NCBI GenBank assembly: GCA_963768165.1 | Contig: CAVYHJ010000002.1 | Coordinates: 195,283 to 259,282 of the forward strand | Direction of reading: 5' to 3' | Source of the DNA: an uncultured bacterium | GTDB taxonomy: Bacteria; UBP4; UBA4092 | DNA length: 64,000 nucleotides | Part shown: piece by piece, positions 22,084 through 45,337 of the stretch | Numbering within the stretch: position 1 is the first letter of the stretch | How the letters are laid out: each line of letters starts with the position of its first letter | Program-made: the position numbers and the translations under genes | The notes under the pieces: model-generated | What the model was told of the DNA's origin: nothing | What the model saw: the letters and a program-made list of their open reading frames with translations, nothing else | Databases searched by the model: none

Positions 22084-22326
22084 ATCAAATTCCTTTTCAT
22101 TTCCAAACGCAGATTATAGCATTAGTGGAGGGCGGCGGGAATAGTAAAGTGTCGAGTCGGGAGACTCGACCTATCGGATAGAGGAATGGTCAAAACCAAT
22201 TTCTTACGAATATCATAAGTCGTATTGATTTAAACAAAAAGTAAGCGTAATATAATGGGGTTCAGACCATGGAAATTATCATTCACCCACGATATGATAC
22301 CGGGGATTTATTCAGGAGGGCAGGTC

Positions 22327-25002: not shown

Positions 25003-25012
25003 TGATTTTCAC

Positions 25013-25579: not shown

Positions 25580-25596
25580 TTGTATAATCTCCTTTT

Positions 25597-25686
25597 TTAA
25601 TAACTTCTACCCGACTTTAGTCGAGGGTTCGGGGACTTCAGTCCCAATTTAAGGGCTAAAGCCCTAAGAACCGTGGACTAAAGTCC
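25597..25686. repeat. Interspersed double-hairpin palindromic repeat (family R1), copy 3
   Basis: CTTCTACCCGACTTTAGTCGAGGG..GGACTTCAGTCC..GGGCTAAAGCCC..GGACTAAAGTCCCGTAGAAGAA between kdpC and kdpB. Confidence 0.6.
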
Positions 25687-25702
25687 CGTAGAAGAAAATA
25701 TG

Positions 25703-27739
25703 TTATGCCCAACCTAATACAACGATGAGCATGTCAATTAGTTTGATACCGATGAAGGGAAGAAGCACTCCGCCCAACCCATATACCAGTAAATTCATTT
25801 TCAAGAACGAGGAAACGGAAACGGCACGTAATTTGACGCCCCTCAATGCCAACGGGATTAAGAACAAAATAATAATCGCGTTGAAAATGACGGCGGACAA
25901 AATCGCACTCCCAGGATTATTTAACCTCATCACATTCAGAATATTCAACTGCGGATAAGCGACCGCAAACATTGCCGGAACGATGGCGAAATATTTCGAG
26001 ACATCGTTGGCAATACTAAAAGTAGTAAGCGCGCCACGCGTGATAAGGATTTGTTTTCCGACTTCCACAATATCGAGAAGTTTCGTGGGATTGGAATCCA
26101 AATCAATCATATTGGATGCTTCCCGCGCCACCTGCGTGCCTGCATTCATAGCGACCGCGACATCGGCTTGCGCGAGAGCGGGTGCGTCATTAGTCCCGTC
26201 TCCAATCATCGCGACAAGGTTACCGTCCTCTTGTGCCTTGCGAATTAATGCCAATTTGGTTTCGGGTTTGGCCTGAGCAACGAAATCATCCAGCCCGGCT
26301 TCCGCGGCAATCGAAGCAGCGGTGAGCGGGTTATCGCCGGTAATCATGGTGGATTTGATACCCATTTCACGGAGTTGCGCGAGACGAGCTTTAATGCCTT
26401 GTTTCAGAACGTCTTTGAGACGAATCACGCCAAGAACTCTTTTCCCGTCAGAAACGACCAAAGGCGTATTACCTTGTTTGGCGAACCCTTCCACGATGTC
26501 CTTGACTCCGGCAGGGATTGTGGCATTGGACTGTTTCAGAAATTCTTCAATCGCGTCCAAGGAACCCTTGCGGATTTTTTTGCCATCAATATCAATCCCG
26601 CTCATGCGTGTTTCGGGAGTGAAAGGTACGAACACGGCACCTTCGGGAGCACGGATATCGCTTCCCTTGATACCTTTTTCGGTTTTACAGAGGGTTACAA
26701 TACTTCTGCCTTCGGGAGTTTCATCGGATAGTGAGGATAACAAGGCACAGTCCACCAATTCTGCTTTTTCAACTCCAGCAGAAGGAACCAAATCGGTTGC
26801 CATACGATTGCCGAGAGTGATGGTACCCGTCTTATCGAGCAAGACGATATTGACATCGCCTGCCGCTTCTACCGCACGACCGCTCAGAGCGATGACGTTG
26901 TGTTGTAATAGTCTATCCATCCCTGCGATACCGATAGCGGGAAGTAAACCGCCAATGGTGGTCGGCATGAGGCATACCAAGAGAGAAATCAATATCGGGA
27001 CGGTGGTCGCGATACCCAAATAATTGGCATAGGTGGGCAGGACGATAACGACGATTAGGAACAACACTGTGATGCCGACAAGGAGAATTTCTAAAGCGAT
27101 TTCATTGGGTGTCTTTTGACGTTTCGCGCCTTCGACCATAGAAATCATGCTATCGAGGAATGTCTCACCGGCATTCGCCGTGATACGGATTTTGATATGT
27201 CCCGATAATAGTTTGGTTCCACCAGTCACGCCACTGCGGTCACCACCGGATTCCCGAATCACGGGAGCGGATTCACCAGTGATGGCAGATTCGTCCACAA
27301 GAGCGACGCCTTCGATAATTTCTCCATCACCGGGAATGACTTCCCCTTCAATAACCAGAATCAAATCGCCTTTGCGAAGATCCAAGGCGGATACTTTTTC
27401 TTTCGCTCCACTTTCCAATATTTTAAGAGCAAAGAGTTCGCTGCGTGCTTTCCGCAAAGATTCCGCACGTGCTTTCCCTTGAATTTCCGCCAAGGCTTCC
27501 GAGAAGGTGGCGAAAAGAACGGTCACCCAGAGCCAAAGGGTAATTTGCAAATTAAACCCGAAACTGGCATGATGGGTGATATTGATTACCGTGATGATAG
27601 TGGTAATCACAGCGCCGATTTCAACGACCAACATTACGAGATTGCGCCATAATAAAAAGGGATTTAATTTTTTAATAGCTTCCTGCAATCCCTTGAACAG
27701 AAAGTCCGCTTGAAATATACTTCGTTTCGTTTGTGCCAT
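25703..27739 (-). CDS. kdpB: K+-transporting P-type ATPase subunit KdpB (operon 1)
   Basis: P-type motifs [21 protein letters not shown]; 678 aa. Confidence 0.95.
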
Positions 27740-27806
27740 ATATTATCTCCTTAGAACCACCACCCCCTTCCCCCTCCTTAATTAAGGAGGGGGACTGAGG
27801 GAGTGA

Positions 27807-29507
27807 TTAAAATGTTTTTCCTTGCAACATGAATAAATGTTCCAACACGGGACCGAGGGTGAATGCCGGGAAATAGGTCAATGCGCCGACAATAAAGACT
27901 ACGCAAACCAGCATAGCGACAAATAACCAGCCGGTGGTTGGAAATGTAGCCAAACTGGTAGGAACAATCTTTTTCCTGACCAGTGCTCCGGCAATAGCCA
28001 GTCCTGGAATGAGGGTGGAAAATCGTCCAACCAACATGGTGGCGCCACCGGTTAAATTATAAAACACGGTATTGGCGTTAAGTCCGGCAAACGCGGAACC
28101 GTTATTCCCACCATAGGATAAAAAGGCATATAACACTTCCGACCAACCGTGGGCGGAGGGATTATTCATGCTGGACAATCCGGTGGCGGTAATCATAGCG
28201 AATGCCGCAAAGATTTTAAGAACAATGGGCGCTGCCAAAATTGCAATCACCGTCCAAATCATTTCATAAGGACCAAGTTTCTTGCCAAGATATTCAGGGG
28301 TACGTCCGATCATCAATCCAGCAATAAACATAGTGGCGAAGACATAGAAAAACATTCCGATGAGTCCGACACCCAATCCGCCGAAGATGACTTCCCCAGT
28401 GCATAAGTTAAACATATAGACTAGACCCGTGAGGGGGAGCATACTGTCGTGCATAGAGTTCACGGAGCCGTTGGAAGTGACGGTGGTCATGTGTCCCCAT
28501 GCAGCAGAATTGATAATCCCAAAACGGGCTTCTTTGCCTTCCATATTCCCCCCAACCAGATGCAACTTATCGAAAAAGGGGTTACCCTGGGTTTCGCTAT
28601 AGAATACTACGGCCAAACCTATAATAAATAGGGTTAACATGGAATAAAAGATGGCTTTGCCTTGACGGCTATCGCGTACCATAAAACCAAACATGAACAC
28701 TTGCGCGGTGGAAATGAAGAGAATTGCCATCATTTCAAAAATATTAGACAAGCCAGTGGCATTCTCAAAGGGATGCGCGGAGTTGACGTTGAAGAAACCG
28801 CCGCCATTAGTTCCCAACTGTTTAATGGCAATCTGTGAAGCTGCAGGACCAACGGCAATGGTTTGCGCACCGCCTTCCAATGTCTTTACTACCTCATACG
28901 GATGTAAGGTTTGAACGACACCTTGAGACACCAAAATGAGGGTAAGGATAATGCTCAATGGCAATAATATATATATTACAGAACGGGTCATATCCACCCA
29001 GTAATTGCCTATCTTGTCGGTATCTTTGCGAATAAATCCGCGAATCATGGCGACCATGACTGCCATCCCCATCGCGGGGGTAACGAAATTATGTACCGTG
29101 AGTCCCAGCATTTGGGTGAGATAACTCAGGGTACTTTCCCCGCCATACGCCTGCCAGTTGGTATTGGTGACAAAAGAGATGGCGGTATTTAATGCCAAAT
29201 CCCAACGGACGGCAGCGAATTTTTGCGGATTCAAAGGCAGATGCCCTTGAAGAAGCTGCAATAAAAATAAAGCGGCGAGAAATATTACATTGAACCAGAA
29301 TACCGCCCAGGCATAAGTTTTCCAGTTCATTTCTTCGGATTCATTGACGCCGCAGAGACGGTATATTCCACGCTCAAGAGGTTTTAAGAACCCGCTGAGA
29401 AATGTCCATTCTCCGTTATACACCCGGAACATATATTTCCCTGTCGGGATGGACAGGAAAAACATGATTGCCAAGGCAACAACAACTACAATCATATCTA
29501 TTAACAT
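27807..29507 (-). CDS. kdpA: K+-transporting ATPase subunit KdpA (operon 1)
   Basis: 566-aa polytopic protein with KdpA-typical GTNGGGFF selectivity-filter-like motifs. Confidence 0.9.
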   Translation of the reverse strand: MLIDMIVVVVALAIMFFLSIPTGKYMFRVYNGEWTFLSGFLKPLERGIYRLCGVNESEEMNWKTYAWAVFWFNVIFLAALFLLQLLQGHLPLNPQKFAAVRWDLALNTAISFVTNTNWQAYGGESTLSYLTQMLGLTVHNFVTPAMGMAVMVAMIRGFIRKDTDKIGNYWVDMTRSVIYILLPLSIILTLILVSQGVVQTLHPYEVVKTLEGGAQTIAVGPAASQIAIKQLGTNGGGFFNVNSAHPFENATGLSNIFEMMAILFISTAQVFMFGFMVRDSRQGKAIFYSMLTLFIIGLAVVFYSETQGNPFFDKLHLVGGNMEGKEARFGIINSAAWGHMTTVTSNGSVNSMHDSMLPLTGLVYMFNLCTGEVIFGGLGVGLIGMFFYVFATMFIAGLMIGRTPEYLGKKLGPYEMIWTVIAILAAPIVLKIFAAFAMITATGLSSMNNPSAHGWSEVLYAFLSYGGNNGSAFAGLNANTVFYNLTGGATMLVGRFSTLIPGLAIAGALVRKKIVPTSLATFPTTGWLFVAMLVCVVFIVGALTYFPAFTLGPVLEHLFMLQGKTF

Positions 29508-29737
29508 AAATTTCCTTTCTTTTGTAATTTAGGCTTTTACTTTATACAACAGCCTGAATTTTACTACTATTCAAAAATCAATTCAACTGTTTTCCTTTTA
29601 CATGGTACCCTCCATTAAAAAATTGGCTTTTGAAAATATTAGATTACACTTTTGCTCAATTTAAACAATCTTAAAATTGCAAAGAATTGTGTTACTACAA
29701 CTGATAAATAATAAAAAGAAGTTAGGTGGAGGGTTCA

Positions 29738-29896
29738 TAAATAAAAAACCCACTCACTCTTCCACGCCTACGAGGTTAGCTGACGGGCTCGGGTTGAAAA
29801 GTAACCCTACGCTTTCGCGATTAGCCCCAACTTCCGGTTCCCCCGTATCTTTCGAATTCGGCGAACTTAAGTGGTAATACTGCTATATTTTTCTAC
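29738..29896 (-). promoter_or_regulatory. Candidate c-di-AMP (ydaO/kimA-type) riboswitch leader, copy B
   Basis: Same conserved core as copies A, C, D; internal GNRA-capped hairpin CGC-GAAA-GCG; 3' tail GAGUGAGUGGGUUUUUUAU. Confidence 0.6.
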
Positions 29897-29903
29897 TAGT
29901 ATT

Positions 29904-29932
29904 ATTATCGGATATTTTCAAGAAAATGTCAA
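29904..29932 (-). promoter_or_regulatory. Sigma70-type promoter candidate for leader B
   Basis: Minus-strand TTGACA (29927-29932), 17-nt spacer, GATAAT (29904-29909). Confidence 0.4.
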
Positions 29933-30074
29933 ATTGGAAGGTAAATAACAAGAGGATAACTATCTCATTTGTAATGGAAGTATTTTACTATGGATTATTG
30001 ATATTATTTAACATGTACAATTATTAGAGAGAGTAATTCCTAACTCATTACAATGGGAATATAGCAATTAATTA

Positions 30075-30114
30075 AAAAACAATAGGAATCCTACCTTTTC
30101 AAGGCAGGATTCCT
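30075..30114 (-). terminator. Intrinsic terminator downstream of kdpC (operon 2)
   Basis: Hairpin GGAATCCTGCC/GGTAGGATTCC followed by U-run on the minus-strand transcript. Confidence 0.55.
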
Positions 30115-30140
30115 ACAAAAGCAACCACTTTAGGAATATA

Positions 30141-30716
30141 TTATTTGGCAGAAGATTGAACTTGATCCAATGCGATATTTAACTTCAAGACATTGACGCC
30201 CGGATCACCAAGGAAGCCCAAAGTTCGAGAATCGGTATTTTTCTGGATCAGATCTTGTACCGTTGCCTCATCCATTTTTCGAGCTTTAGCAACCCTTGGA
30301 ACTTGAAATAAGGCAGCCTCCAGGCTTATATGGGGATCCAAACCACTGGCGGACCCTGTGACCAAGTCTACTGGCACTAGTGCATCTGCGGGCAGGTTAT
30401 TTTCCTGTCGAATAACATTCGCAGTAGAATCAATTTGACTAATAAGTTTTTGGTTGGTGGGTCCCAAGTTAGACCCGGTGGAATTCCCACCATCAAAATT
30501 CGCCGGAGATGGCCGCCCATGAAAATACTCCGGTTTGGTAAAAGATTGTTCGATTAATTCAGAACCAACCGTTTTCCCATTCACCTGTATTAGACTGCCA
30601 TTGGCTTTATATGGGAATAAAACCTGACAGATGCCTGTCATCATCAAGGGATAAAATAACCCTGTTAAGATTGAAAAAACTACAAAGGTTGTGATCGATC
30701 TTGTTAAATCTTTCAT
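30141..30716 (-). CDS. kdpC: K+-transporting ATPase subunit KdpC (operon 2)
   Basis: 191 aa, paralog of 25013..25579. Confidence 0.85.
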   Translation of the reverse strand: MKDLTRSITTFVVFSILTGLFYPLMMTGICQVLFPYKANGSLIQVNGKTVGSELIEQSFTKPEYFHGRPSPANFDGGNSTGSNLGPTNQKLISQIDSTANVIRQENNLPADALVPVDLVTGSASGLDPHISLEAALFQVPRVAKARKMDEATVQDLIQKNTDSRTLGFLGDPGVNVLKLNIALDQVQSSAK

Positions 30717-30729
30717 TTTTAGGACCTCC

Positions 30730-32793
30730 TTAAGCCCAACCTAAAGATACAATGAGCATGTCTATGAGTTTAATACCGATAAATGGTAATATCACACCAC
30801 CCAACCCATAAATTAACAAGTTTCTCTTCAAGAAAGCAGAAACTGTAGTGAGTCGTAACTTGACCCCTTTCAATGCCAAAGGAACCAAACAAAGAATGAT
30901 AATGGCATTGAAGATAACAGCAGACAAAATCGCACTGTATGGGTTTGACAACCCCATCACGTTTAATATATTCAACTGTGGATAGGTAATTGCAAACATA
31001 GCCGGTATGATGGCGAAATACTTGGATACATCATTGGCTATGCTGAACGTGGTTAAAGCTCCACGGGTAATGAGAATTTGTTTACCCACTTCAACGATAT
31101 CCAATAGTTTGGTGGGATTGGAATCCAAATCCACCATATTGGAGGCTTCCCGTGCCACTTGAGTTCCGGCATTCATTGCTACCGCTACATCGGCTTGAGC
31201 CAGGGCAGGAGCATCATTGGTCCCATCCCCAATCATAGCGACCAAGTTCCCATCGGACTGATATTTGCGTATCAACTGTAATTTGGTTTCCGGTTTGGCT
31301 TGCGCTACAAAATCATCCAATCCAGCTTCTGCGGCAATAGACGAAGCAGTTAATGGATTGTCACCGGTAATCATAATCGACTTAATCCCCATCTCTCGTA
31401 GTTGTGCCAACCTGGCTTTGATACCTTGCTTTAATACATCTTTTAACCGGATGACCCCTATGATCTTTTTGCTATTTGCTACAACCAAAGGAGTATCGCC
31501 TTGTTTCGCAAATTCTTCGACTTTGTTTCTCACATCACTAGGGATACTGAAATGAGATGGGCGTATAAATTCTTCGATGGCATCAAGCGCTCCTTTTCGA
31601 ATCATTTTTCCATCAATATCTATTCCACTCATCCTGGATTCAGGTGTAAAAGGAACAAAAACCGCACCTTCGGGAGCCCGGATATCACTTCCTCTAATCC
31701 CTTTTTCAGTTTTACACAATGTTACTATGCTTCTTCCTTCCGGTGTTTCATCTGAAAGTGAAGATAATAAAGCGCATTCGGTCATTTCTTTTTTATCTAT
31801 CCCTGCCGCCGGGATCAATTCAGTCGCCATGCGGTTTCCTAGGGTGATCGTCCCGGTCTTATCCAACAGAACCACATTGACATCACCGGAAGCTTCTACG
31901 GCACGACCGCTAAGGGCGATCACATTGTGTTGCAATAATCTATCCATGCCAGCAATACCAATAGCCGGAAGTAATCCTCCGATCGTGGTGGGCATTAAGC
32001 AAACCAATAAGGAGATTAAGATTGGAATGGTAGTAACGATTCCCATATAACTGGCATAAGCGGGAAGGGTTACGACGACAATCACGAACAATACGGTTAT
32101 ACCAATCAGCATGATCTCCAAAGCGATTTCGCCGGGTGTTTTTTGCCGTTTCGCACTTTCCACCATTTTAATCATGCCATCCAGAAATGTTTCTCCAGGA
32201 TTGGCAGTAATTTTGATTTTGACTTTTCCAGAGATTAATTTTGTTCCTCCGGTTACCCCACTCCGGTCTCCTCCAGATTCTCGAATAACCGGAGCTGATT
32301 CTCCTGTTATGGCCGATTCATCGATTAAGGCAACACCTTCAACTATTTCACCATCTCCAGGAATTACATCTCCATCAGCGACTAAAATTATGTCGCCTTT
32401 GCGAAGAGACAGGGCAGATACAGTCTCTATGCTACCATTGTCCAACAATTTTTGGGCAGACAATTCGCTTCTGGCACGGCGTAAAGATTCAGCACGAGCT
32501 TTTCCCTGAATTTCAGCCAAGGCTTCCGAAAAGGTTGAGAAAATAACAGTAAACCACAACCAGAGGGAAATCTGTAAATTAAAGGAGAAACTGGTGTGAT
32601 GGGCAATACTGACGATGGTTACTACAGTAGTAACCATCGCGCCGATCTCCACAACCAGCATGACAATATTTCTCCATAGTGTAAAAGGATTTAATTTTAT
32701 TATGGATTCTTTCAATCCTTGTAACAAGAAATCCGCTTGAAATAGGTTTTGTTTTTTTTGTGTCATATGCAATCTCCTTATGCGTTGGGTCAT
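30730..32793 (-). CDS. kdpB: K+-transporting P-type ATPase subunit KdpB (operon 2)
   Basis: [17 protein letters not shown]; paralog of 25703..27739. Confidence 0.95.
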
Positions 32794-32811
32794 GACATCG
32801 TCATGACTCTA

Positions 32812-34560
32812 CTAAAAAGTTTTTCCTTGCAACATAAATAAATGTTCCAATACAGGTCCTAGTGTAAACGCCGGAAAATACGTTAAGGCACCCACAATGA
32901 ATATTACACAGACTAACATGACAACAAACAACCAACCAGTGGTAGGAAAAGTGGCTGTACTTGTAGGAACAATCTTTTTCTGTACTAGTGAACCGGCAAC
33001 AGCCAGTCCCGGTATTAAGGTGGCGAACCGACCTACTAGTATGGTGACTGATCCTGTGAGGTTATAAAATAAGGTGTTAGCGTTAAGACCCGCAAAAGCA
33101 GAACCATTATTACCACCAAAGGATAAATAGGCATAGAGTATTTCTGACCAGCCATGTGCTGAGGGATTATTTAAGCTGGATAATCCTGTCGGTGTAATAA
33201 TGGCAATCGCTGAAAATATTTTGAGTATGATAGGCGCTGCCAGAATTGCAACCACCGTCCAAATCATTTCATAAACTCCTAATTTTTTACCCAGATACTC
33301 AGGAGTTCGTCCTATCATCAACCCGGCTATGAACATGGTGGTAAATACATAAAACAAAACACCAACCGTTCCTATGCCGACACCGCCGAAAATTACTTCT
33401 CCGGTACCCATAAAGAACATATAAACCAAACCGGTGAGCGGGAGCATACTGTCATGCATGGAATTAATCGAACCATTGGCTGTTCCTGTTACCAATCCTC
33501 CCCACACAGCGGAGTTTATAATCCCACAGCGAGTTTCCTTGCCTTCCATATTCCCGCCCACAACGTGTAATTTAGCAAACAAAGGATTCCCTTGCGTTTC
33601 TGTATATACACAAATGATTAACCCAATCACTAAGAGAATCAACATGGAATAAAAGATGGATCGGCCCTGACGAACATCTTTGACCATATATCCAAAGGTA
33701 AAAACAGGTGCACTGACCAAAAGGATAATCGCCATCATTTCCAAAAACATAGTCAACCCGTTTGGATCTTCAAAAGGATGTGAGGAATTCGTGTTGAAGA
33801 AACCTCCGCCATTGGTACCCAACTGTTTAATAGAAATTTGTGAGGCTACAGGACCCATGGCAATGGTCTGAGACCCGCCTTCCAAAGTTTTCACAGTTAC
33901 ATAAGGATGTAAGTTTTGAATAACACCCTGGGATCCCAATATCAATCCTAAAACAATACTTAATGGAATTAACACGTAAAGAATCGACCGGGTCAAGTCC
34001 ACCCAATAGTTACCAATAAAATTGGTATCTTTGCGTATAAATCCCCGGGTCAGAGCAACCAATACTGCTAAAGCTATGGCAGGAGAGACAAAATTATGCA
34101 CAGTCATACCTAGCATTTGGGTAAGATAACTCATGGTGGTTTCTCCCCCATAAGCCTGCCAGTTGGTATTGGTGATAAAGGAGATAGCTGTATTTAATGC
34201 CAGGTCCCATTTCAACCCCGGCAATTTTTGTGGATTCAGAGGAAGATAACCCTGAACCAGTTGTAAGACAAACAAAGTTATCAAAAAGATAACATTTGAC
34301 CAAACAAATGCCCAAGCATAGGTTTTCCAATTCATCTCCTCATCTTCATTAATGAAACAAACCCGGTAGATTCCTTTTTCCAATGGCCGGAATACCGGGG
34401 AAAGAAATGTTCTTTTCCCTTCGTATACATGAGCCATGAATTTCCCTATTGGGATGGACAGGAGTAATGTAACGATTAAACCAATTGTGACTACAAGTAT
34501 ATCTATCATATTAATTATCCTTTCTTCAAAAGATGGTCTTTCATTAATCTCATTAATCAA
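32812..34560 (-). CDS. kdpA: K+-transporting ATPase subunit KdpA (operon 2)
   Basis: Paralog of 27807..29507; alternative start at 34509 (MIDILVV, GAAAGGA RBS) is plausible. Confidence 0.9.
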   Translation of the reverse strand: MINEINERPSFEERIINMIDILVVTIGLIVTLLLSIPIGKFMAHVYEGKRTFLSPVFRPLEKGIYRVCFINEDEEMNWKTYAWAFVWSNVIFLITLFVLQLVQGYLPLNPQKLPGLKWDLALNTAISFITNTNWQAYGGETTMSYLTQMLGMTVHNFVSPAIALAVLVALTRGFIRKDTNFIGNYWVDLTRSILYVLIPLSIVLGLILGSQGVIQNLHPYVTVKTLEGGSQTIAMGPVASQISIKQLGTNGGGFFNTNSSHPFEDPNGLTMFLEMMAIILLVSAPVFTFGYMVKDVRQGRSIFYSMLILLVIGLIICVYTETQGNPLFAKLHVVGGNMEGKETRCGIINSAVWGGLVTGTANGSINSMHDSMLPLTGLVYMFFMGTGEVIFGGVGIGTVGVLFYVFTTMFIAGLMIGRTPEYLGKKLGVYEMIWTVVAILAAPIILKIFSAIAIITPTGLSSLNNPSAHGWSEILYAYLSFGGNNGSAFAGLNANTLFYNLTGSVTILVGRFATLIPGLAVAGSLVQKKIVPTSTATFPTTGWLFVVMLVCVIFIVGALTYFPAFTLGPVLEHLFMLQGKTF

Positions 34561-34714
34561 CAGTGAAATTAAAATTCTTTTCTAAATGCCAACCCATTGG
34601 ACCGTCATAATTCCTCTTCATCTCCTCCTAAAATTTCTCCTGACGAATCATGGTCACCAGGAGATAGACTATTAAAATCACAGTTATAAAACCTGCAATT
34701 AAATCCCCATAGGC

Positions 34715-34807
34715 TTACTGGTCCTCCAGTTTCTCTAATGCTTTGATACAGACAAAGCAAAGGGCTATAATAATCACAGCTATGGCAATGACTTGCAAAT
34801 CACTCAT
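34715..34807 (-). CDS. kdpF: KdpF-like small hydrophobic peptide (30 aa)
   Basis: MSDLQVIAIAVIIIALCFVCIKALEKLEDQ; AGGAGGG RBS 8 nt upstream; sits between the P-II gene and kdpA; not in the ORF track because it is short. Confidence 0.5.
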   Translation of the reverse strand: MSDLQVIAIAVIIIALCFVCIKALEKLEDQ

Positions 34808-34819
34808 GCAATTTCCCTC

Positions 34820-35179
34820 CTACAAAAATGAAACTGCGCATTCATCCGTTTCTCCGGTACGAATACGAACGGCTCTTTCGATTGGAAACACATAAATTCT
34901 GTCATTGGAGACTTTGCCATTACGCGCGGCAAACATCATGGTTTCCACAATCCGGTCGGTTTGTTCTCGGGGAACAACCACTTCAACTTTCAATTTGGGC
35001 AGAAAATCCATAATATACTCCACTCCCCGATAAACTTCTTTATGCCCTTTTTCCGTCCCACAGACTTGAACTTCTGTCACGGTGATGCCTTGAACTCCAA
35101 GGGCCTGAAGCGCGTCTTTCACATCATCCAACTTATACGGTTTAATGATGCATTCAATTTTGTTTAACATATTTAACAT
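34820..35179 (-). CDS. P-II (GlnB/GlnK-like) signal-transduction protein, first gene of kdp operon 2
   Basis: KIECIIKPYKLDDVKDAL...GITVTEV...EVYRGVEY...FLPKLKVEVVVP...RIRTGE aligns with GlnB; T-loop and GDGKIF-like B-loop are diverged; AGGAGG RBS. Confidence 0.75.
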   Translation of the reverse strand: MLNMLNKIECIIKPYKLDDVKDALQALGVQGITVTEVQVCGTEKGHKEVYRGVEYIMDFLPKLKVEVVVPREQTDRIVETMMFAARNGKVSNDRIYVFPIERAVRIRTGETDECAVSFL

Positions 35180-35427
35180 GTTTCTTTAACCTCCTATGTA
35201 GCAAGTTAATCTCGATTCAAATATTTTTTAATTAGCAAAGTGCGGAGCCGGAAACTTAAGGAGGAAACCGGCTCCGCGATTAGCCCATATAACACAATTC
35301 AAAAATATGGGTTAACTTTTAAATTCTAATTACATCATCCGATACATGTATTTGGACTTAAACCAAAATTAACGTCATGTATCTATAACGATGAATCAAT
35401 TATTTAGGAAGTTAATGGGGTGGGGTT

Positions 35428-35590
35428 TCAATAAAAAACCCACTCACTCTTCCACGCCTGCGAGGTTAGCTGACGGGCTCGGGTTGAAAAGTAACCCTAC
35501 ACCTTGCGGTGATTCGCCCCAACTTTCGGTTCCCCCGCCTTTTTCAAGCTCGGCGAACTTAAGTGGTACTATTAAAATTCTATGTTATTT
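35428..35590 (-). promoter_or_regulatory. Candidate c-di-AMP (ydaO/kimA-type) riboswitch leader, copy C
   Basis: Conserved core; internal hairpin CACC-GCAA-GGUG covaries with GCGC-GCAA-GCGC (D), CGC-GAAA-GCG (B) and CGCG-GAAA-CGCG (A). Confidence 0.6.
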
Positions 35591-35760
35591 TACTTATATA
35601 AAAATAACGCATATCCCATACCAGTTATAATGAATTCTAAAGGTTTTCAACAACTCAAATATTTTCAATATTTTACAATTAAATCTGTAAAAACCATTCG
35701 GTAAACTTATGACATAAATGTCATTTAGAACTGCGAAACATTGTCATAATTATGACATTT

Positions 35761-35976
35761 TTAGAAACAGTTATGTTTTTTTATGTTCAAGTTATGGATC
35801 ACCTTTAATTGGCTATTTGAGTTATTTTTGTTTTTGGCACACTTAGTTAATACCACCCCACCTTGAGGGTGAATTGCTTTATCGGAGTTATAAAGCATAT
35901 CCTGCAAATCCATAATTTGATCCCTCATAATTCGGATCATATAATCTTCCTGTAACTCGTAATGGGCATGGATCAT
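35761..35976 (-). CDS. Small helical protein, paralog b
   Basis: 71 aa; AAGGAG RBS; shares an RDQIMDLQDML / RLQIMELQRFL segment with the next gene. Confidence 0.4.
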   Translation of the reverse strand: MIHAHYELQEDYMIRIMRDQIMDLQDMLYNSDKAIHPQGGVVLTKCAKNKNNSNSQLKVIHNLNIKKHNCF

Positions 35977-36001
35977 AGGATTCTCCTTAGTCTTTATTGC
36001 T

Positions 36002-36220
36002 TTAGTACATCAGGAACTTTTGACGGAGTTCCTGGCGCAATTTTTTTAATTGCAATTCGATATTACTTAATGTTTCGACGCCCAATTCGCCATCCTTTTG
36101 AAAACCGTGATTATGTTCCAGCGCCTTTAGAAATCTCTGCAATTCCATAATCTGGAGGCGTAATATACTCGCTCTGAAATCTTTCATTCGACTCATATTT
36201 ATGCCTATTTGAACTCTCAT
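36002..36220 (-). CDS. Small helical protein, paralog a
   Basis: 72 aa; start overlaps the stop of the upstream P-II gene (ATGA). Confidence 0.4.
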   Translation of the reverse strand: MRVQIGINMSRMKDFRASILRLQIMELQRFLKALEHNHGFQKDGELGVETLSNIELQLKKLRQELRQKFLMY

Positions 36221-36558
36221 ACAGCGCTTTCAGACAGTTCTCCAGTTCGAATCCGAACAGCCATATCAATGGGAATCACAATAATCTTAATGTTGGAGAT
36301 ATGATTATTACGCAAGGTTGAAGTAATCGTATCTACAGCCCTGGAGACCATTTCTTCAGGGAGCACTAACTCGATTTTCACCTTAAGTAAATAATCAACG
36401 TTGAACTCTACTCCACGATAAACTTCAGTAGGTTTAATTTCTCGATTAGAAACTTTAACCTCCGTGGCCGCCAATCCGTGAATACCAATATCAAGGAGGG
36501 CTTCTTTCACTTCCTCCACTAGACTGGGTTTGATAATGCACTCGATTTTTTGTAACAT
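36217..36558 (-). CDS. Divergent P-II-like protein (paralog 2)
   Basis: MLQKIECIIKP...ATEVKV...EVYRGVEF...KVKIELVLP...RIRTGE; GlnB-like fold signature with altered T-loop. Confidence 0.6.
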   Translation of the reverse strand: MLQKIECIIKPSLVEEVKEALLDIGIHGLAATEVKVSNREIKPTEVYRGVEFNVDYLLKVKIELVLPEEMVSRAVDTITSTLRNNHISNIKIIVIPIDMAVRIRTGELSESAV

Positions 36559-36686
36559 GGTTATTTACCTCCTCATAAATTTTTTATTTTGTGTTCTCAA
36601 TCGTTTTCATTTCATTGGGACGCCGGATTGGGTGATGTGAATCCGGCGCCCATTAATCCCCCAATAAATATAGTGGATAGCTTGTA

Positions 36687-37028
36687 CTAAGCCGCTTTCG
36701 GATACCATTTTTGGGGATATTGTTCACTTACAACCATTACCGGGACCACATAAAAGTTTCCCTTTGTTTTACCATCAACACAAATAATACGAGTGATGGT
36801 CTCAATCACCCTGTTTACCAGATGTTGGGAAACGATAGTTTCGATTTTGGTGTATGCCTGGAACTCCAACTTGTATTGGATACCCCTATAGGATAAGGTC
36901 GGGCTATTAACCGGATCATACACTTTGGCATCAGAAAGTGTAATCTCATCAATACCCATACCCTTTAGGGCTTCAGTGACTCCACCCAATTTATAGGATT
37001 TGATGGTGCATTCGATTTTTTGAAACAT
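36687..37028 (-). CDS. Divergent P-II-like protein (paralog 3)
   Basis: MFQKIECTIKSYKL...SYRGIQY...TKIETIVS; weaker GlnB-like pattern, C-terminal RxR motif absent. Confidence 0.5.
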   Translation of the reverse strand: MFQKIECTIKSYKLGGVTEALKGMGIDEITLSDAKVYDPVNSPTLSYRGIQYKLEFQAYTKIETIVSQHLVNRVIETITRIICVDGKTKGNFYVVPVMVVSEQYPQKWYPKAA

Positions 37029-38097: not shown

Positions 38098-38261
38098 TAA
38101 ATAAAAAACCCACTCACTCTTCCACGCCTGCGAGGTTAGCTGACGGGCTCGGGTTGAAAAGTAACCCGGCGCTTGCGCGCTTCGCCCCTACTTCTTGGTT
38201 CCCCCGCCTCTTACGAGCTCGGCGAACTTAAGTGGTGCTAAGTTCTTGATTTAATTTTCTA
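38098..38261 (-). promoter_or_regulatory. Candidate c-di-AMP (ydaO/kimA-type) riboswitch leader, copy D
   Basis: Conserved core with GCGC-GCAA-GCGC hairpin; 3' tail GAGUGAGUGGGUUUUUUAU; M23 peptidase gene downstream. Confidence 0.6.
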
Positions 38262-38516: not shown

Positions 38517-39365
38517 ATGTGGCCATTAAGATATTTTGAGTCAAATACATGGGCTATTCCTGAGGTAGATAATTCACCTACGTGGGATGGTGTAATCTTT
38601 TTCATCCTAGCCATTTTGTTTTACTTTGAATTTTACAGATTTATATTAAATAAGACAGAGGGTACTCAGAAAACATGGTTAAAACAATGGGTAATTTTCG
38701 GTGCTATTTTTATAATCTCTAAATTACTCGATGCCGGTGCATTAACAAATTTTCTTGGGTATTCCGGTGGGATGATACTGGTTTTCCTAACAATTTCACT
38801 TATCCGAAAGATATGGTATTCATCAATTCGTCTATCCCAAAAATGGAAATGGACAGGAATCGGTCTTTTTTATACCTTGATAATAATTTTTTGTATATTG
38901 GGTTGGTGGTGTTCTTACGTATATTTTTTACCCGCCTCCTACCCACCGGAAGAAAGAGATCAATTGCGTATGATTCGTCGAATCATTGAAATTGAACCTC
39001 ACGGGGGTGACTTGGATAAGCCCATCATTCCTTTAACCGAAGCCCATTTGGTGTATGCGGGAAAAGAACTAATACCCGACTCAATTCGGTCCAATCTTGA
39101 ATATCAAGGTTATCATTATACTTTAATCACAAACAAAGCATATCAACCCGCATTATTTACTATTGATGCGGTTCCGATAAACGTTAAAAAGAGACAGAAA
39201 TCTTTCCATGCCTATCCGGTAAATCCTGAAGGACTAAAAGAAGATTTCAAACACGTCGGTTATTGCATCACAATGGCAAACCATGCAGGTGGACCTGCTA
39301 CCGATAAAGACCGCCATTTTCATGAAAAAGGGTATTGGTCTCTTTTAAAATATTACCTATTCTAA
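38517..39365 (+). CDS. Hypothetical polytopic membrane protein
   Basis: 282 aa with several TM segments. Confidence 0.4.
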   Translation: MWPLRYFESNTWAIPEVDNSPTWDGVIFFILAILFYFEFYRFILNKTEGTQKTWLKQWVIFGAIFIISKLLDAGALTNFLGYSGGMILVFLTISLIRKIWYSSIRLSQKWKWTGIGLFYTLIIIFCILGWWCSYVYFLPASYPPEERDQLRMIRRIIEIEPHGGDLDKPIIPLTEAHLVYAGKELIPDSIRSNLEYQGYHYTLITNKAYQPALFTIDAVPINVKKRQKSFHAYPVNPEGLKEDFKHVGYCITMANHAGGPATDKDRHFHEKGYWSLLKYYLF

Positions 39366-39497
39366 CCGTATCATGAGTGGAATTGTTATTTTCAATTCCA
39401 CTCCTAGTACTAAAGAAGATAGGATTTCCCCGCCAATTGACTATCATTTTCATGAAATGGTGGAAAGTTGGGCAATAATGTTAGAATAATAGGAGAT

Positions 39498-40031
39498 ATG
39501 GCGATATTAAAAGTAGCAAAAATGGGTCACCCGGTATTGCGAACGAAGGCTCAACCCTTGAGTCCAAAGGAAATACGGTTACCGGAAAATCAACTTTTGA
39601 TAGAAAACATGGTAGAAACCATGCGGGAATATGATGGGGTGGGTTTGGCGGGACCGCAAGTACATGAATCGAAACGGATATTTGTGGTGGAGGTAGTAGA
39701 AAATCCTGATAATCCGAAACGGGGGGGGACTCCTTTAAAAGTATTGATTAACCCGATCATTAAACCGTTAACCAATGAGAAAGCGTTGGGTTGGGAAGGG
39801 TGCCTCTCCATACCGGATATCCGCGGGATGGTGCCAAGATATACGGAAATTGAAGTTTCGGCGGTTGATCGGCATGGGAAAGAATTGAATTTTAAAGCCA
39901 AGGATTTTTTTGCGGTGGTGATTCAACATGAAACCGATCATCTGGACGGGATATTGTTTCTTGACCGGATGCAGGATTTTTCCACCTTGACCTATTTGAA
40001 CGAATATGCCAAGTATTGGGCAAAAGAATAG
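39498..40031 (+). CDS. def: Peptide deformylase
   Basis: Motifs GVGLAGPQV, EGCLSIP, HETDHLDG; start at MAILKV with AGGAG RBS. Confidence 0.9.
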   Translation: MAILKVAKMGHPVLRTKAQPLSPKEIRLPENQLLIENMVETMREYDGVGLAGPQVHESKRIFVVEVVENPDNPKRGGTPLKVLINPIIKPLTNEKALGWEGCLSIPDIRGMVPRYTEIEVSAVDRHGKELNFKAKDFFAVVIQHETDHLDGILFLDRMQDFSTLTYLNEYAKYWAKE

Positions 40032-40093
40032 TCTAAAGCTTGAGTTTTAAAGCTCTAACATTGGATGTGAGACCTTAGACTTGGGACTTAATT

Positions 40094-40843
40094 ATGGATA
40101 CGGATACGAGAAATGCAGTCGCGGAATTGATTCTGGAAGCGTTGAAAAAACCGGAAAAAGCGAGATACATGGATTTGTTGGAGGGATATTGTTCTCATGT
40201 GGAGAAATGGAACGCTCTTATGGTTCCGTTCACTTCTTTGAATCATAACTTCCCCATTACCCGAAATATTTTAGAGTCTTTGGTCCATTCAGGATTGTTT
40301 AAAATGTTTCCCTTGGAAATGCCATTGGAAGAAGAGGATACTCCCCTACCCTCCGGAGCAACTTTATGTTTAAATCCGGAAATTGAGAATGATTTTCCCT
40401 ACCTGGCATCCCGCATCCACGCGGGGTACCGGATTGTGGATACCTTGCGTAATAATCCTGTCCCGAAAGAAAAGAATCATATTGAAAGCGGGATCATCAA
40501 AGCTTCGCTCCTGTTTAATAACAAACTATATTTTGAGACCCATGAGATATTGGAAGAAATCTGGCTGGAGGAGACGGGTTCTATCCGTCCATTTTTACAA
40601 GGGATTATTCAAATTGCGGTGGGTTTTCATCATCTCCTGAATAGTAATTATTATGGGGTGGTAAGTTTGACGAAAGACGGAGCAAATAAATTACGTCCCT
40701 ATACACCCGTTCATAGTGGATTGGATGTAAAATCATTTTTGGCGGGAGTAGACCGATGCCAGGAAAGATTAACAGAGTTAAACAGAGAAACAGTTTCCCA
40801 ATTTGATCCTTCGTTAATCCCGAAGATGAGATTGGTGAATTAA
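40094..40843 (+). CDS. DUF309-like domain protein
   Basis: LFNNKLYFETHEILEEIWLEETG...FLQGIIQIAVGFHHLL fits the DUF309 pattern as remembered. Confidence 0.5.
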   Translation: MDTDTRNAVAELILEALKKPEKARYMDLLEGYCSHVEKWNALMVPFTSLNHNFPITRNILESLVHSGLFKMFPLEMPLEEEDTPLPSGATLCLNPEIENDFPYLASRIHAGYRIVDTLRNNPVPKEKNHIESGIIKASLLFNNKLYFETHEILEEIWLEETGSIRPFLQGIIQIAVGFHHLLNSNYYGVVSLTKDGANKLRPYTPVHSGLDVKSFLAGVDRCQERLTELNRETVSQFDPSLIPKMRLVN

Positions 40844-42095: not shown

Positions 42096-43705
42096 TTATG
42101 CGCACAAAACCAATGAATCTAGAATCGTCCACCCAAATCGGTTTGAGTGACGATTCTCATGCCAATGAATCTAATAAAAAGAACCAATCAAGACTTGAAG
42201 AAAACACTTCTTTATTTAATCGTGGAACCCTGAGAATCCGACTAATCATCGCCGGGCCATTATTCGTCAGTTTACTGGTTTTACTCACCGGCGTATTCAT
42301 TTTACAGATCGTCGAACTCAAAATAACAAATGCGGGAGTGCCTCAAGCAAATATCAATAATATTTTGTCGACACTTGAATTAACCATTTTAGGGTTTACA
42401 GTGATTGCGGCTTTTGCTGGATTTTTACTGAGTTATGTTATTGTTAAACCGGTCCGCCGAATGACGGAAACCGCAAGAAATATTGCTACTGGAAAATTGA
42501 CCCAAACCGACCAAATTCCTTCGCACGTGGAATTAGATACGTTGCAGGCGACATTTAATAACATGGTCACTTCGCTACGTGAATTTTCCTATGAACGAAA
42601 TACCTATATTTTAGAGAGTTTAACGAGTGCCTTGGTAACATTGGACAGTACGGGGAAAATTGCCACCATCAACACAGCAGCAGAATCCATCCTGGGAGTC
42701 GAACCAGATTCCGCCACGGGAAAATCCATTTTCGATATTCTGGAAGATTTACCAGAAAACCAACAAGTCCGAAGGATGTTTCAAAACAGTTTACAGCGCC
42801 ACATCACCTATTCTTCCGAGGAAATAATTTTAAGTTCTGCTAAATTTAAAAAACTACCGATCGGAATAACCATTTCACTTTTAAAAGAAGAAGACCAACT
42901 CATCGGGATTGTCGCCGCATTCAAAGACTTGAGTAAAATCAAACAGATTCACCAGCAACTCCAGCGTTCTGACCGGCTGGCGGCCATCGGGACTTTGGCT
43001 ACAGGATTAGCACATGAGATCCGCAACCCGCTGGGTTCCATGCGAGGATTGGCACAATTACTGGCGGAAGATATGAAACCGGAAGATCCCAAATTACGTT
43101 ATGCCCAGGTTATTATAAAAGAAATTGACCGTTTAAATCATGTGGTACAGGAACTCTTAACTTTTTCACAGGCATCGACCGGCGGAATGGAATATAATGA
43201 CATCAATATTGCTTTGCGTGATGCTTTATTCGTTGCAAAACAGAATCCGAAAATGAACCCGAATATTACCATAACGGAATATTATGACACGCAAATTCCC
43301 CTGGTAAAGATTGAAAAAGAAAAGCTTATTCAAGCATTTTTGAACATCATCATAAACGGCTTGGAAGCTGCAGGGGAAATGCCGGGAGATAAAAGCAATT
43401 TGAATGTTCGTACTTCGTTAGCCAACCCACGTTCCGATTACCCGGTGCCGAACCTGGGGTTTGCACTAGTCGAAATAAGCAATACCGGCAAGACCATTCC
43501 ACCGGAACATCTCGATCATATTTTTGACCCATTTTTTACAACAAAAGAATCCGGTACGGGATTGGGTCTGGCGATTGTTCACCAAATTATTGCTTCTCAC
43601 AGCGGATTAATCGAAGTCAGCAGCGAACCGAATAAAGGGACGGTTTTCCAAATTTACATTCCTATTATTAAAGAACAGGAGGCATTTGAACTTGCCACCA
43701 CCTAA
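42092..43705 (+). CDS. Sensor histidine kinase (NtrB/PilS-like)
   Basis: Two TM segments, PAS-like region, H-box LAHEIRNPLGSMRGL, HATPase G-boxes (GTGLGLAIV). Confidence 0.85.
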   Translation: MIMRTKPMNLESSTQIGLSDDSHANESNKKNQSRLEENTSLFNRGTLRIRLIIAGPLFVSLLVLLTGVFILQIVELKITNAGVPQANINNILSTLELTILGFTVIAAFAGFLLSYVIVKPVRRMTETARNIATGKLTQTDQIPSHVELDTLQATFNNMVTSLREFSYERNTYILESLTSALVTLDSTGKIATINTAAESILGVEPDSATGKSIFDILEDLPENQQVRRMFQNSLQRHITYSSEEIILSSAKFKKLPIGITISLLKEEDQLIGIVAAFKDLSKIKQIHQQLQRSDRLAAIGTLATGLAHEIRNPLGSMRGLAQLLAEDMKPEDPKLRYAQVIIKEIDRLNHVVQELLTFSQASTGGMEYNDINIALRDALFVAKQNPKMNPNITITEYYDTQIPLVKIEKEKLIQAFLNIIINGLEAAGEMPGDKSNLNVRTSLANPRSDYPVPNLGFALVEISNTGKTIPPEHLDHIFDPFFTTKESGTGLGLAIVHQIIASHSGLIEVSSEPNKGTVFQIYIPIIKEQEAFELATT

Positions 43706-45071
43706 AGTTTTAATCGTTGACGACGAAGAAACATTACGATTTACTCTATCTGAGGTAATGAACAAGGAGGGGTATACCGCGGTGACAGCCGCAGACGGCG
43801 AAGAAGCCTTGCAAAAAGCAACCGGGACACTGTTCGATCTGATTATTTTAGATATCAAGATGCCCAAAATGGACGGGATGGAAACGCTACCACGAATTAA
43901 AGAAATAGATCCAGATGCCACCGTCATTATGATAACAGCTTTTGGTTCCAAAGAATTGGCTCTTCAAGCCATCCATATCGGCGCTTACGACTATTTCACC
44001 AAACCTTTTGATATTGAAGAAATGCGGGTAGTGGTGCGAAGAGGTTTGGAAAAAAACCGGCTGCAACGGGAACTTTCGGTATTACAAAAGCAACCCTTTG
44101 AATTTGACAATATGATTGGGCAAAGCAACCAAATGCAGGATGTTTTCCGTTTAATCCATCAAGTAGCTAACTCCGATGCGACGGTATTAATTTGCGGAGA
44201 AAGCGGCACGGGGAAGGAATTGGTCGCTCAAGCGATTCATTACCACAGTTCCCGTTCCAGAAAACCGTTTGTCAAAATGAATTGTGTTGCCATTCCGGAG
44301 GGTCTGCTCGAATCGGAATTATTTGGCCATGAAAAAGGGTCGTTCACCGGTGCCGTAACGCAACGAGTAGGCAAATTCGAATTGGCGCAGGATGGTACTT
44401 TGCTTTTGGATGAAATCGGAGATATGAGTCTGACCACCCAGGCAAAACTGTTGCGGGTACTTCAAGAAAGAGAATTTGAACGAGTTGGGGGAAACAAGAT
44501 TGTCAAAGTCAATATTCGTATCATTGCAGCAACCAATCAAGACCTAGCCAAGGCGGTGCAAGAAAAAAAATTTCGGGAAGATTTATATTTTCGATTGAAT
44601 GTAGTACCGATTTATTTACCTCCGTTACGTGAACGAAAAGGCGATATTCCATTATTATTGGATCATTTTTTGCGGATTTACAATGCCAGATTTTCAAAAC
44701 AGGTCAGGAATGTTGCTCCATCTGTGATGAAATTTCTTACGGAATATTCCTGGCCGGGGAATATCAGGGAATTTGAAAATATCATTCAACGCGCGGTGGT
44801 ACTTGCTCAATCGGATACACTGACAGAGAACTATTTACCCTTGGGCACTCCCCCGGTAAAATCCAACGATACAATTGCTACAGAATCTCTTTCCGGCAAT
44901 CAACCTCTTAGTAAAAAGATTAACGCTATTACTTCGGAAGCGGAAAAAAAGATTATCCTCCAAGCTCTGGAAGAAGCTCAGGGAAATAGGACTATTGCTG
45001 CTAGAATACTGGGTCTAAGCCGCAAGGGACTTTACGATAAGTTGGCCAGATACCATATTTCGGATAACTGA
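43686..45071 (+). CDS. Sigma54-dependent response regulator (NtrC/PilR family)
   Basis: REC domain, AAA+ Walker A GESGTGKE, GAFTGA-type ESELFGHEKGSFTGA, C-terminal HTH. Confidence 0.9.
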   Translation: MNLPPPKVLIVDDEETLRFTLSEVMNKEGYTAVTAADGEEALQKATGTLFDLIILDIKMPKMDGMETLPRIKEIDPDATVIMITAFGSKELALQAIHIGAYDYFTKPFDIEEMRVVVRRGLEKNRLQRELSVLQKQPFEFDNMIGQSNQMQDVFRLIHQVANSDATVLICGESGTGKELVAQAIHYHSSRSRKPFVKMNCVAIPEGLLESELFGHEKGSFTGAVTQRVGKFELAQDGTLLLDEIGDMSLTTQAKLLRVLQEREFERVGGNKIVKVNIRIIAATNQDLAKAVQEKKFREDLYFRLNVVPIYLPPLRERKGDIPLLLDHFLRIYNARFSKQVRNVAPSVMKFLTEYSWPGNIREFENIIQRAVVLAQSDTLTENYLPLGTPPVKSNDTIATESLSGNQPLSKKINAITSEAEKKIILQALEEAQGNRTIAARILGLSRKGLYDKLARYHISDN

Positions 45072-45256
45072 TCTTTTACAACGAACAATTCTGTAAAACA
45101 GACACTTTCCAATCATCTCAGATTAACTCTAATAAACAACTGTAACCCTAACTTTACATATTGGCAAATTTATCAAGGATTATAATTCCACCCAGTGTTC
45201 AATTAGATAATTGATTATATTATTGTTATGATTACTTTTTGAAAATAATAAGGTAA

Positions 45257-45272
45257 TGGCATGGGGTTTGCG
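45257..45272 (+). promoter_or_regulatory. Sigma54 (-24/-12) promoter candidate
   Basis: TGGCATGGGGTTTGCG: GG and GC elements with canonical spacing, about 65 nt upstream of the first pilin-like gene. Confidence 0.5.
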
Positions 45273-45337
45273 TTATCATAACCTACAATGAAAAATAAAA
45301 TACACATAAACCAAATTAGAAAGGGGGGGAATAATTA

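Follow-up and report, generated by a model that had tools for sequence, protein, structure and literature searches.

A 64-kb window of contig CAVYHJ010000002.1, from an uncultured bacterium of the UBA4092 lineage of UBP4, carries two short inverted repeats, here called Box 1 and Box 2, upstream of a riboswitch for cyclic di-AMP (c-di-AMP) and of an operon encoding a P-II protein and a Kdp potassium pump. All genes between about 23 kb and 38 kb of the window are on the minus strand, and the riboswitches among them are referred to by their approximate positions (38k, 35k and 29k). Along this strand, the 38k riboswitch is followed by a gene for an M23 peptidase, an open reading frame (ORF) of 84 amino acids (aa), two divergent P-II-like genes, a 64/72-aa ORF and a 71-aa ORF; then come Box 2, Box 1, an A/T-rich spacer, the 35k riboswitch and the P-II, kdpF-like, kdpA, kdpB and kdpC genes (Table 1). 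Beyond kdpC lie a terminator, a sigma-70 promoter, the 29k riboswitch, a second kdpA-kdpB-kdpC set and a gene for a KdpD-like sensor. The boxes occupy the intergenic DNA that separates the 71-aa ORF from the 35k aptamer and lie 144-193 nt upstream of the latter. The cluster starts 2 nt past the stop of this ORF, and the edge of the Box 2 16-mer is 3 nt from the TAA codon itself (35763-35761).

Both boxes are contained in positions 35707-35760 of the plus strand, TTATGACATAAATGTCATTTAGAACTGCGAAACATTGTCATAATTATGACATTT. A preliminary description of this DNA had placed perfect palindromes and a third ATGACAT half-site in the intergenic region upstream, in the minus sense, of the P-II/kdp leader. 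Palindromic sequences are indeed present where it put them. The symmetry of GTCATAATTATGAC (35743-35756) is perfect and continues outward to give the 16-mer of Box 2, whereas the repeat at 35709-35724 is interrupted by an AA spacer that is not self-complementary and thus falls short of a perfect palindrome, and the supposed third half-site (35752-35758) turned out to be the right arm of Box 2 and no additional site. The region can also be read as four heptamers, ATGACAT at 35709, ATGTCAT at 35718, TTGTCAT at 35741 and ATGACAT at 35752, with centre-to-centre distances of 9, 23 and 11 bp. Every heptamer of the form ATG-W-CAT is self-palindromic and is frequently widened to WWATG-W-CATWW.

On its own, the heptamer shows no enrichment in the window (17 copies, with 11.4 +/- 3.5 expected), and about 5% of simulated 64-kb sequences contained, within 50 bp, four non-overlapping copies of a single 6-mer having two or more G/C positions. 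The arrangement actually observed, in which two distinct inverted repeats with short spacers share a G/C-containing arm within 40 bp, appeared in only 1 of 445 order-2 Markov simulations, which corresponds to a probability of about 0.002 per window. For a whole genome of several Mb, chance alone would still be expected to give about 0.1-0.2 clusters of this kind. Three of the approximately 33 distinct short inverted repeats in the window (arms of at least 7 bp) fall inside 35657-35757. Looser clustering statistics were dominated by low-complexity repeats and were uninformative. These results indicate that the clustering of the boxes is non-random and unlikely to be due to chance at the level of the window.

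Rfam reported four full-length c-di-AMP aptamers in the 64 kb, all on the minus strand (11090-11216, 29750-29873, 35440-35565 and 38110-38234). The units that they lead are an unknown gene of 777 aa, two kdp operons and the M23 peptidase/P-II-like operon. The 29k, 35k and 38k aptamers are close paralogues whose homology runs about 200 nt past the aptamer, and by BLAST a leader unit of about 360 bp (35242-35614) shares 73-78% identity with its paralogues, the 38k and 29k leaders. The 29k leader has the sigma-70 elements TTGACA-17-GATAAT, matching at 11/12 positions, and the 38k leader has TTGACA and TATATAAT, that is TATA(T/A)A(T), as judged by eye. At the aligned position of the 35k copy, the -35 element is gone and -24/-12 elements are found instead. 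A sigma-70 scan found no promoter on the minus strand of the box-containing intergenic region. The window has five intergenic matches to TGG-N9-TGC. One of them is cTGGtatgggatatGCg (35623-35608, minus strand), whose GG (35622-35621, -25/-24) and GC (35610-35609, -13/-12) mark a probable sigma-54 promoter facing the riboswitch. With the C of the GC at 35609 taken as -12, transcription would start at about 35597, or 32 nt before the aptamer; the corresponding distance estimated for the 29k copy is similar, about 24 nt.

The candidate promoter closely resembles that of pilA elsewhere in the window. The two are identical at 17/20 positions when 35604-35623 is compared with the 20-mer of the pilA sigma-54 promoter, TGGCATGGGGTTTGCGTTAT (45257-45276). 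Used as a probe with up to 3 mismatches, the pilA 20-mer recovered exactly one other site in the 64 kb, which was 35604-35623, with 0.01 expected, and none of 100 shuffles gave two matches. Ahead of the pilin gene lies TGGCATGGGGTTTGCG, which has 2 mismatches to the sigma-54 consensus and comes closer to it than any other sequence of the window. A PilS/PilR-like kinase and a sigma-54 activator (GSFTGA; 43686-45071) are encoded directly upstream of the pilin genes. The pilA promoter is kept in a related contig, L090, in which the surrounding intergenic DNA has diverged. A 16-bp palindrome, TCAATTAGATAATTGA, is found about 76 bp upstream of the inferred pilA start (45199-45276, plus strand). Since both this palindrome and the promoter are conserved in L090 (11500-11580), the palindrome is probably a PilR-type activator site.

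Sigma-54 promoters need a bound activator, whose enhancer sites are located about 100-150 bp upstream and are recognized by pairs of helix-turn-helix (HTH) domains, and the intervening DNA is frequently looped with the assistance of IHF (PMC7057263, PMC7175178). In Desulfovibrio vulgaris, the validated sites of sigma-54 response regulators are mostly palindromes of 15-20 bp, often in twos or threes and 18-43 bp apart, and P-II operons, classic targets of the sigma-54/NtrC type, are such targets in this species as well (DVU3220; PMC3333781). Relative to the start at 35597, Box 1 extends from -112 to -127 (centre about -120) and Box 2 from -145 to -160 (centre about -153), and the two centres are 33 bp apart, or about three helical turns. 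The dyads have the size (15-20 bp), the number (usually at least two) and the distance (about 80-200 bp upstream) that are characteristic of a sigma-54 enhancer. Since the boxes lie at -112 to -160 of the sole credible promoter, and since this promoter looks sigma-54-type, they are enhancer-like. An operator in the repressor sense does not fit because the boxes overlap no promoter core: at least 85 bp separate them from the -24 element downstream, and they coincide with no sigma-70 promoter. As the likeliest of the readings considered, we propose that Box 1 and Box 2 may be upstream activator sites for a putative sigma-54 enhancer-binding protein, a reading to which we assign a probability of roughly 0.45, or slightly less than even odds. 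The earlier suggestion of tandem operators for a dimeric regulator survives in part, in that sites for a dimeric regulator are the best reading of these 16-bp DNA dyads, but neither a repressor operator nor equivalent tandem sites are.

If the boxes are enhancer sites, activator dimers would occupy Box 1 and Box 2 and form the active oligomer. The A/T-rich spacer of about 90 bp would then loop, possibly with IHF, and, at the GG-N10-GC promoter, the oligomer would convert the closed complex formed by sigma-54 RNA polymerase into an open one. The transcript would begin shortly ahead of the c-di-AMP riboswitch, which would set whether transcription proceeds into P-II-kdpF-kdpABC. The unit would act as an AND gate that takes an activator signal for initiation and low c-di-AMP for elongation. 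An IHF-like sequence, TTTCAATATTTTA, is present at 35663-35675 inside the third inverted repeat, with one mismatch to WATCAANNNNTTR; because the IHF consensus occurs at chance frequency in the window (6 found, 6.4 expected), this match carries no evidential weight.

Table 1. Positions of the boxes, the candidate promoter and the neighbouring genes in the 64-kb window.
Feature	Position	Strand	Description
Box 1	35709-35724		Inverted repeat ATGACAT-AA-ATGTCAT, ATGACATAAATGTCAT; 7-2-7, equivalently 6-4-6 as ATGACA-TAAA-TGTCAT
Box 2	35742-35757		Perfect 16-bp palindrome TGTCATAATTATGACA; heptamers TTGTCAT (35741-35747) and ATGACAT (35752-35758)
Third short inverted repeat	35657-35673		AAATATT-TTC-AATATTT; in the A/T-rich spacer between boxes and promoter, about -60 to -76
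Probable sigma-54 promoter	35604-35623	minus	TGGTATGGGATATGCGTTAT; GG-N10-GC, oriented toward the riboswitch
71-aa ORF	35761-35976	minus	Last gene of the riboswitch (38k)-M23 peptidase-P-II-like operon; stop abuts Box 2
c-di-AMP riboswitch aptamer (35k)	35440-35565	minus	Rfam RF00379, full length, 101 bits
P-II (GlnB-type) gene	34820-35179	minus	First gene of the unit; Pfam 3.6e-24
kdpF-like	34715-34807	minus	30-aa hydrophobic peptide MSDLQVIAIAVIIIALCFVCIKALEKLEDQ
kdpA	34509-32812	minus	
kdpB	32766-30730	minus	
kdpC	30716-30141	minus	
Terminator	30116-30082		Strong; after kdpC

The proposed arrangement would work like two known systems, the NtrC-glnAp2 enhancer and the DVU3334-kdp system, and its sequence matches neither. 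At glnAp2 of E. coli, NtrC dyads are located at -140 and -108 upstream of a sigma-54 promoter. The likeness to this system lies in two dyads of about 16-17 bp that are 32-33 bp apart and 100-160 bp upstream of GG-N10-GC, in the A/T-rich, bendable spacer and in the nitrogen-type P-II gene downstream. In contrast, the dyads read TGCACC-N5-GGTGCA there and ATGACA/TGTCAT here, and the boxes of the window differ internally and have no ntrBC nearby. The NifA upstream activator sequence is TGT-N10-ACA, and promoters of the nifH type read CTGGTATG...TGCA. Box 2 fits this spacing exactly and the window promoter starts with CTGGTATG like that of K. pneumoniae nifH, whereas Box 1 does not fit and the window has no nif genes or nifA. 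A NifA site was rejected because the pattern suits Box 2 alone and is of low information: TGT-N10-ACA fixes only 6 bases, and any 16-bp palindrome starting with TGT would satisfy it. A PilR site was likewise rejected; the pilA region carries a different palindrome.

In D. vulgaris, kdpFABC is controlled by the sigma-54 response regulator DVU3334, which replaces KdpE, with the palindrome CGTTACATTTTGTAACG at -149 of kdpF (PMC3333781, PMC4641369). Both there and, by our proposal, here, a potassium pump is under sigma-54/enhancer control through a palindromic site that has an ACA...TGT core and lies about equally far upstream, and in both cases the KdpD sensor is not a canonical full-length kinase. 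The D. vulgaris site differs in being single and in having a 3-nt core spacer (4 nt here) and GTTACA arms (ATGACA here); its regulator gene is within the operon, whereas none is adjacent here, and it has no riboswitch. Control of kdpFABC by a c-di-AMP riboswitch is already known from Bacillus thuringiensis, an organism without kdpDE (PMC6488665). As in the window, an RF00379 aptamer precedes the kdp operon and no KdpDE pair is found at the locus. The riboswitch is the distinctive control in that organism, whereas an extra sigma-54 layer with upstream dyads is proposed here, and a P-II gene heads the operon. A limited search of the c-di-AMP/kdp literature did not find a sigma-54/enhancer layer combined with a c-di-AMP riboswitch. 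If the enhancer model holds, a potassium-pump/P-II unit would be controlled twice, by activator-dependent initiation with sigma-54 and then by c-di-AMP-dependent elongation, and the locus would be a clear example of a duplicated riboswitch leader that gained a different promoter class and an enhancer. The DNA motif could then be used to trace the responsible activator and its regulon in an uncultured, sparsely sequenced lineage. If the model is wrong, the boxes would be a lineage-specific curiosity of little consequence.

Several observations weigh against the enhancer reading, beginning with the boxes themselves. Their half-sites are swapped, with ATGACA-N4-TGTCAT in Box 1 and TGTCAT-N4-ATGACA in Box 2, and the core spacing is 9 bp in the former (TGWCA-N4-TGWCA) and 11 bp in the latter (TGWCA-N6-TGWCA). 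Aligned in register, the two agree at 1/16 positions, and no single consensus for a shared dimer emerges. With swapped half-sites and differing spacing, the boxes are non-identical operators, and one rigid dimer would not bind both equally. The promoter, too, matches the general consensus TGGCACG-N4-TTGCW at only 8/12 positions, a level common by chance; matches to this consensus with up to 3 mismatches are at chance level in the window (61 found, 63 expected), and 35604-35623 scores below that list. The window does not include rpoN, and support for sigma-54 in this organism is indirect, through the activator gene with the GSFTGA motif. There is no activator gene adjoining the P-II/kdp operon, and no kdpE or other small regulator gene near the boxes or the kdp operons. 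The only sigma-54 activator of the window appears to serve pilA, which has a different conserved palindrome nearby. Finally, no terminator was found between the upstream operon and the riboswitch on the minus strand, so that read-through could make a separate promoter unnecessary.

Searches for further copies of the motif add to this list. Neither 16-bp box recurs at 0-1 mismatch in the window. The search upstream of other kdp and riboswitch operons that the preliminary description had proposed gave no ATGACAT/ATGTCAT boxes at the other three c-di-AMP leaders or the second kdp operon of the window. The boxes were not found at the other candidate sigma-54 promoters of the window either; besides pilA, these are two intergenic GG-N10-GC sequences on the minus strand, TGGTACGATTTATGCG at 8510-8524 upstream of a 126-aa ORF and TGGGTATCTCTTTGCT at 15953-15967 upstream of an ankyrin-repeat gene, and neither has ATGWCAT boxes upstream. 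The motif was not found in the 90 loci examined, and the two-box pattern returned only an unrelated satellite-like repeat (L088) from Joint Genome Institute metagenome contigs and was not found in viral contigs. A blastn comparison of the spacer with plasmids gave no match.

Comparison with relatives offers no support from conservation. The lineage is sparsely sampled: the P-II protein has just two relatives above 62% identity among 5.8 billion protein clusters, and when genome contigs were searched with it, the matches listed were generic GlnB/GlnK genes of at most 59% identity and included no orthologous loci. The closest homologues that carry names belong to several candidate phyla. Two related contigs were recovered, L082 (P-II 85% identical) and L086. 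The 71-aa ORF has a homologue in each, which leads directly into the ribosome-binding site of the P-II gene, and no boxes, promoter or riboswitch lie between the two. The only other copy of the segment, in contig L084, is 100% identical to the window. Since L082 and L086 are without the segment and the sole other copy is identical, there is no phylogenetic footprint, and this, too, counts against the proposal. A further contig (L089), whose P-II is 95% identical, has just 27 nt upstream. In L090, whose sigma-54 regulator is 93% identical, DnaK/HSP20 genes are found in place of the kdp region of the window and there is no orthologous spacer.

The boxes could instead be bound by a DNA-binding protein of another kind, such as a sigma-70-type activator, a distal repressor, or a small dimer (e.g. 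a ribbon-helix-helix (RHH) protein) reading each ATG-W-CAT, which would act on the downstream promoter or on read-through. We consider this unlikely, although several points favour it: each heptamer is itself palindromic, four sites spaced 9, 23 and 11 bp fit the data equally well as two 16-mers, and the unequal geometry of the boxes is easier to accommodate with four independent small sites. There is also a precedent in the RHH protein ArtA, which binds tandem sites with an ATGACAT core as single dimers at its operators, ACATGACATGT, on the Staphylococcus plasmid pSK41 (PMC2777438). The ATGACAT core is identical and the sites are short, palindromic and tandem in both cases; the flanks, however, are TT...AA here and AC...GT there, the host and context are unrelated, and no RHH gene was found here. 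The match to the ArtA operator is one of the core only, and this candidate was rejected. No regulator of the kind invoked is encoded nearby. AlphaFold predicted one long helix with a disordered tail for the 71-aa ORF (predicted local distance difference test score, pLDDT, 63) and a helical hairpin for the 64-aa ORF (pLDDT 74), and these adjacent small ORFs were rejected as a local regulator as neither an RHH strand nor an HTH fold was predicted, at low-to-moderate model confidence. Furthermore, with every promoter core more than 100 bp away, the sites are poorly placed for classical repression or for class I/II activation.

The sites of several known regulators were compared with the boxes. 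The consensus is TGTNA-N7-TNACA for GlnR/TnrA and GTA-N8-TAC for NtcA, and KdpE recognizes direct repeats beside the -35. None of these geometries fits, which further argues against another protein. A GlnR/TnrA box needs N7 (17 bp), whereas Box 2 is TGTCA-N6-TGACA (16 bp) and Box 1 is TGACA-N4-TGTCA; NtcA requires GTA-N8-TAC, and Box 2 has GTC-N8-GAC; and the boxes do not form direct repeats next to a -35 as for KdpE. Only Box 2 fits a 5-6-5 site of the CRP/FNR type.

Another possibility is that the boxes have no function and are a by-product of the lineage-specific 146-bp spacer (35615-35760), which would have arisen when the promoter-riboswitch leader was duplicated into the operon, possibly by a local template switch, by hairpin-mediated duplication or as the scar of an insertion junction. 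The boxes are in DNA that L082 and L086 lack, they lie at the very edge of the extra segment against a stop codon, and the leader unit with paralogues at 38k and 29k (35242-35614) does not include them. The 146 bp that hold them have no similarity to any other available sequence, no second copy of the motif was found anywhere searched, the region has 35% G+C, and the 0.1-0.2 clusters expected genome-wide leave some room for chance. We nevertheless find an absence of function improbable. The chance of such a pair is about 0.002 per window, and the placement and spacing of the boxes are exactly enhancer-like relative to a sigma-54 promoter that is supported independently. In addition, palindromes of this sort are missing from the borders of the other block inserted at this locus, kdpFABC with the 29k leader, so that they are no general signature of a junction.

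The two blocks are apparent from the comparison with L082 and L086. The P-II-kdpA spacer of L082 is homologous to the DNA just upstream of the second kdpA of the window, and the P-II gene of L082 is joined directly to the orthologue of this second kdpA, which makes the first kdpFABC and the 29k leader an extra block in the window. Compared with these relatives, the window thus carries two extra blocks, each bringing a c-di-AMP leader. The riboswitch leader inserted into the operon shows an apparent switch of promoter class from sigma-70 to sigma-54. A composite module could be envisaged in which a sigma-70-driven leader was duplicated into the operon, its promoter class was switched to sigma-54, and the boxes are sites of an undescribed sigma-54 activator that couples a nitrogen/P-II or potassium signal to the c-di-AMP riboswitch. 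We regard this fuller scenario as doubtful; if true, the module would amount to a portable cassette of promoter and riboswitch by which an operon is rewired.

The boxes might also act as RNA, as two small hairpins in a read-through mRNA that stabilise its 3' end, mark a processing site or terminate transcription weakly, but this is very unlikely. With no terminator between the upstream operon and the riboswitch, the boxes are probably transcribed, each can fold as a 6-bp stem with a 4-nt loop, and TTTTT follows Box 2 on the plus strand. However, folding of the sense strand was not better than that of shuffled sequences (z = -1.41 for 76 nt and -0.75 for 205 nt), the stems, with just 2 G-C pairs, lack a U-tract on the sense strand, there was no Rfam match even at E <= 1, and there is no plus-strand gene to terminate. 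Least probable of all is that Box 2 is a promoter element, in which TGTCATAAT would supply an extended -10 (TGn + CATAAT) for either strand and ATGACA would stand in for a -35 TTGACA. The likeness is direct, and such hexamers are common in A/T-rich intergenic DNA. However, the sigma-70 scan was negative here on both strands, a start at about 35742 would give a leader of 177 nt compared with about 24-32 nt in the paralogous leaders, and the plus-strand direction would be antisense into coding DNA and serve no gene.

Several features of the surrounding genes were recorded. A G+C-rich hairpin, GCGGAGCCGG...CCGGCTCCGC, is located between the 35k aptamer and the P-II gene (35245-35280, minus strand). 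Its loop, TTTCCTCCTTAAGTTT, is complementary to the Shine-Dalgarno region of the P-II gene (AGGAGG), and judging from this sequence the hairpin may be an expression platform of the translational or terminator type. Two complete kdp operons stand in tandem at 23023-35179 on the minus strand, first kdpF?ABC and then kdpABC. The KdpD-like sensor of 659 aa matches its model only as far as position 642 of 895, the C-terminal part being missing. In the upstream operon (35761-37028, minus strand), two divergent P-II-like genes of 113 aa share the c-di-AMP riboswitch with the M23 peptidase and are followed by two tiny helical ORFs. The 64/72-aa and 71-aa ORFs have in common the helix motif (I/M)xxQIM(E/D)LQ, and the family of the 64-aa ORF has four members among the 5.8 billion protein clusters. 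When L090 (1-4500) is compared with the window (38517-40843), HSP20 and DnaK are found ahead of the peptide deformylase gene in the former, and the riboswitch/kdp region in the latter. Because different genes precede peptide deformylase in L090, the whole kdp/P-II block of about 15 kb lies at a synteny break.

Other repeats were noted elsewhere in the window. A perfect palindrome of 28 bp, GTAGAGACGTAACATGTTACGTCTCTAC, is present at 13415-13442 in a convergent intergenic region. In the relatives it lies directly upstream of the ribosome-binding site of the 64-aa ORF, at 19-46 of L087 and as variants in L086 (about 271-306) and at the start of L082, and it may be a repeated palindromic element of the lineage. 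The inverted repeat TCGAGTCGGGAGACTCGA occurs in three identical copies (14032-14049, 21547-21564 and 22152-22169), where no tRNA or Rfam family was reported. A cluster of CCCCC/GGGGG words at 657-699, CCCCCTTTAATTCCCCCTCC...GGGGGAGGGGG, forms a long imperfect inverted repeat. Two tandem paralogous genes on the minus strand (50861-53287 and 53479-55965) encode proteins of about 810-830 aa with GH44/EpsB-like domains, and motif matches that recur in this pair at an offset of 2621 bp suggest a recent tandem duplication.

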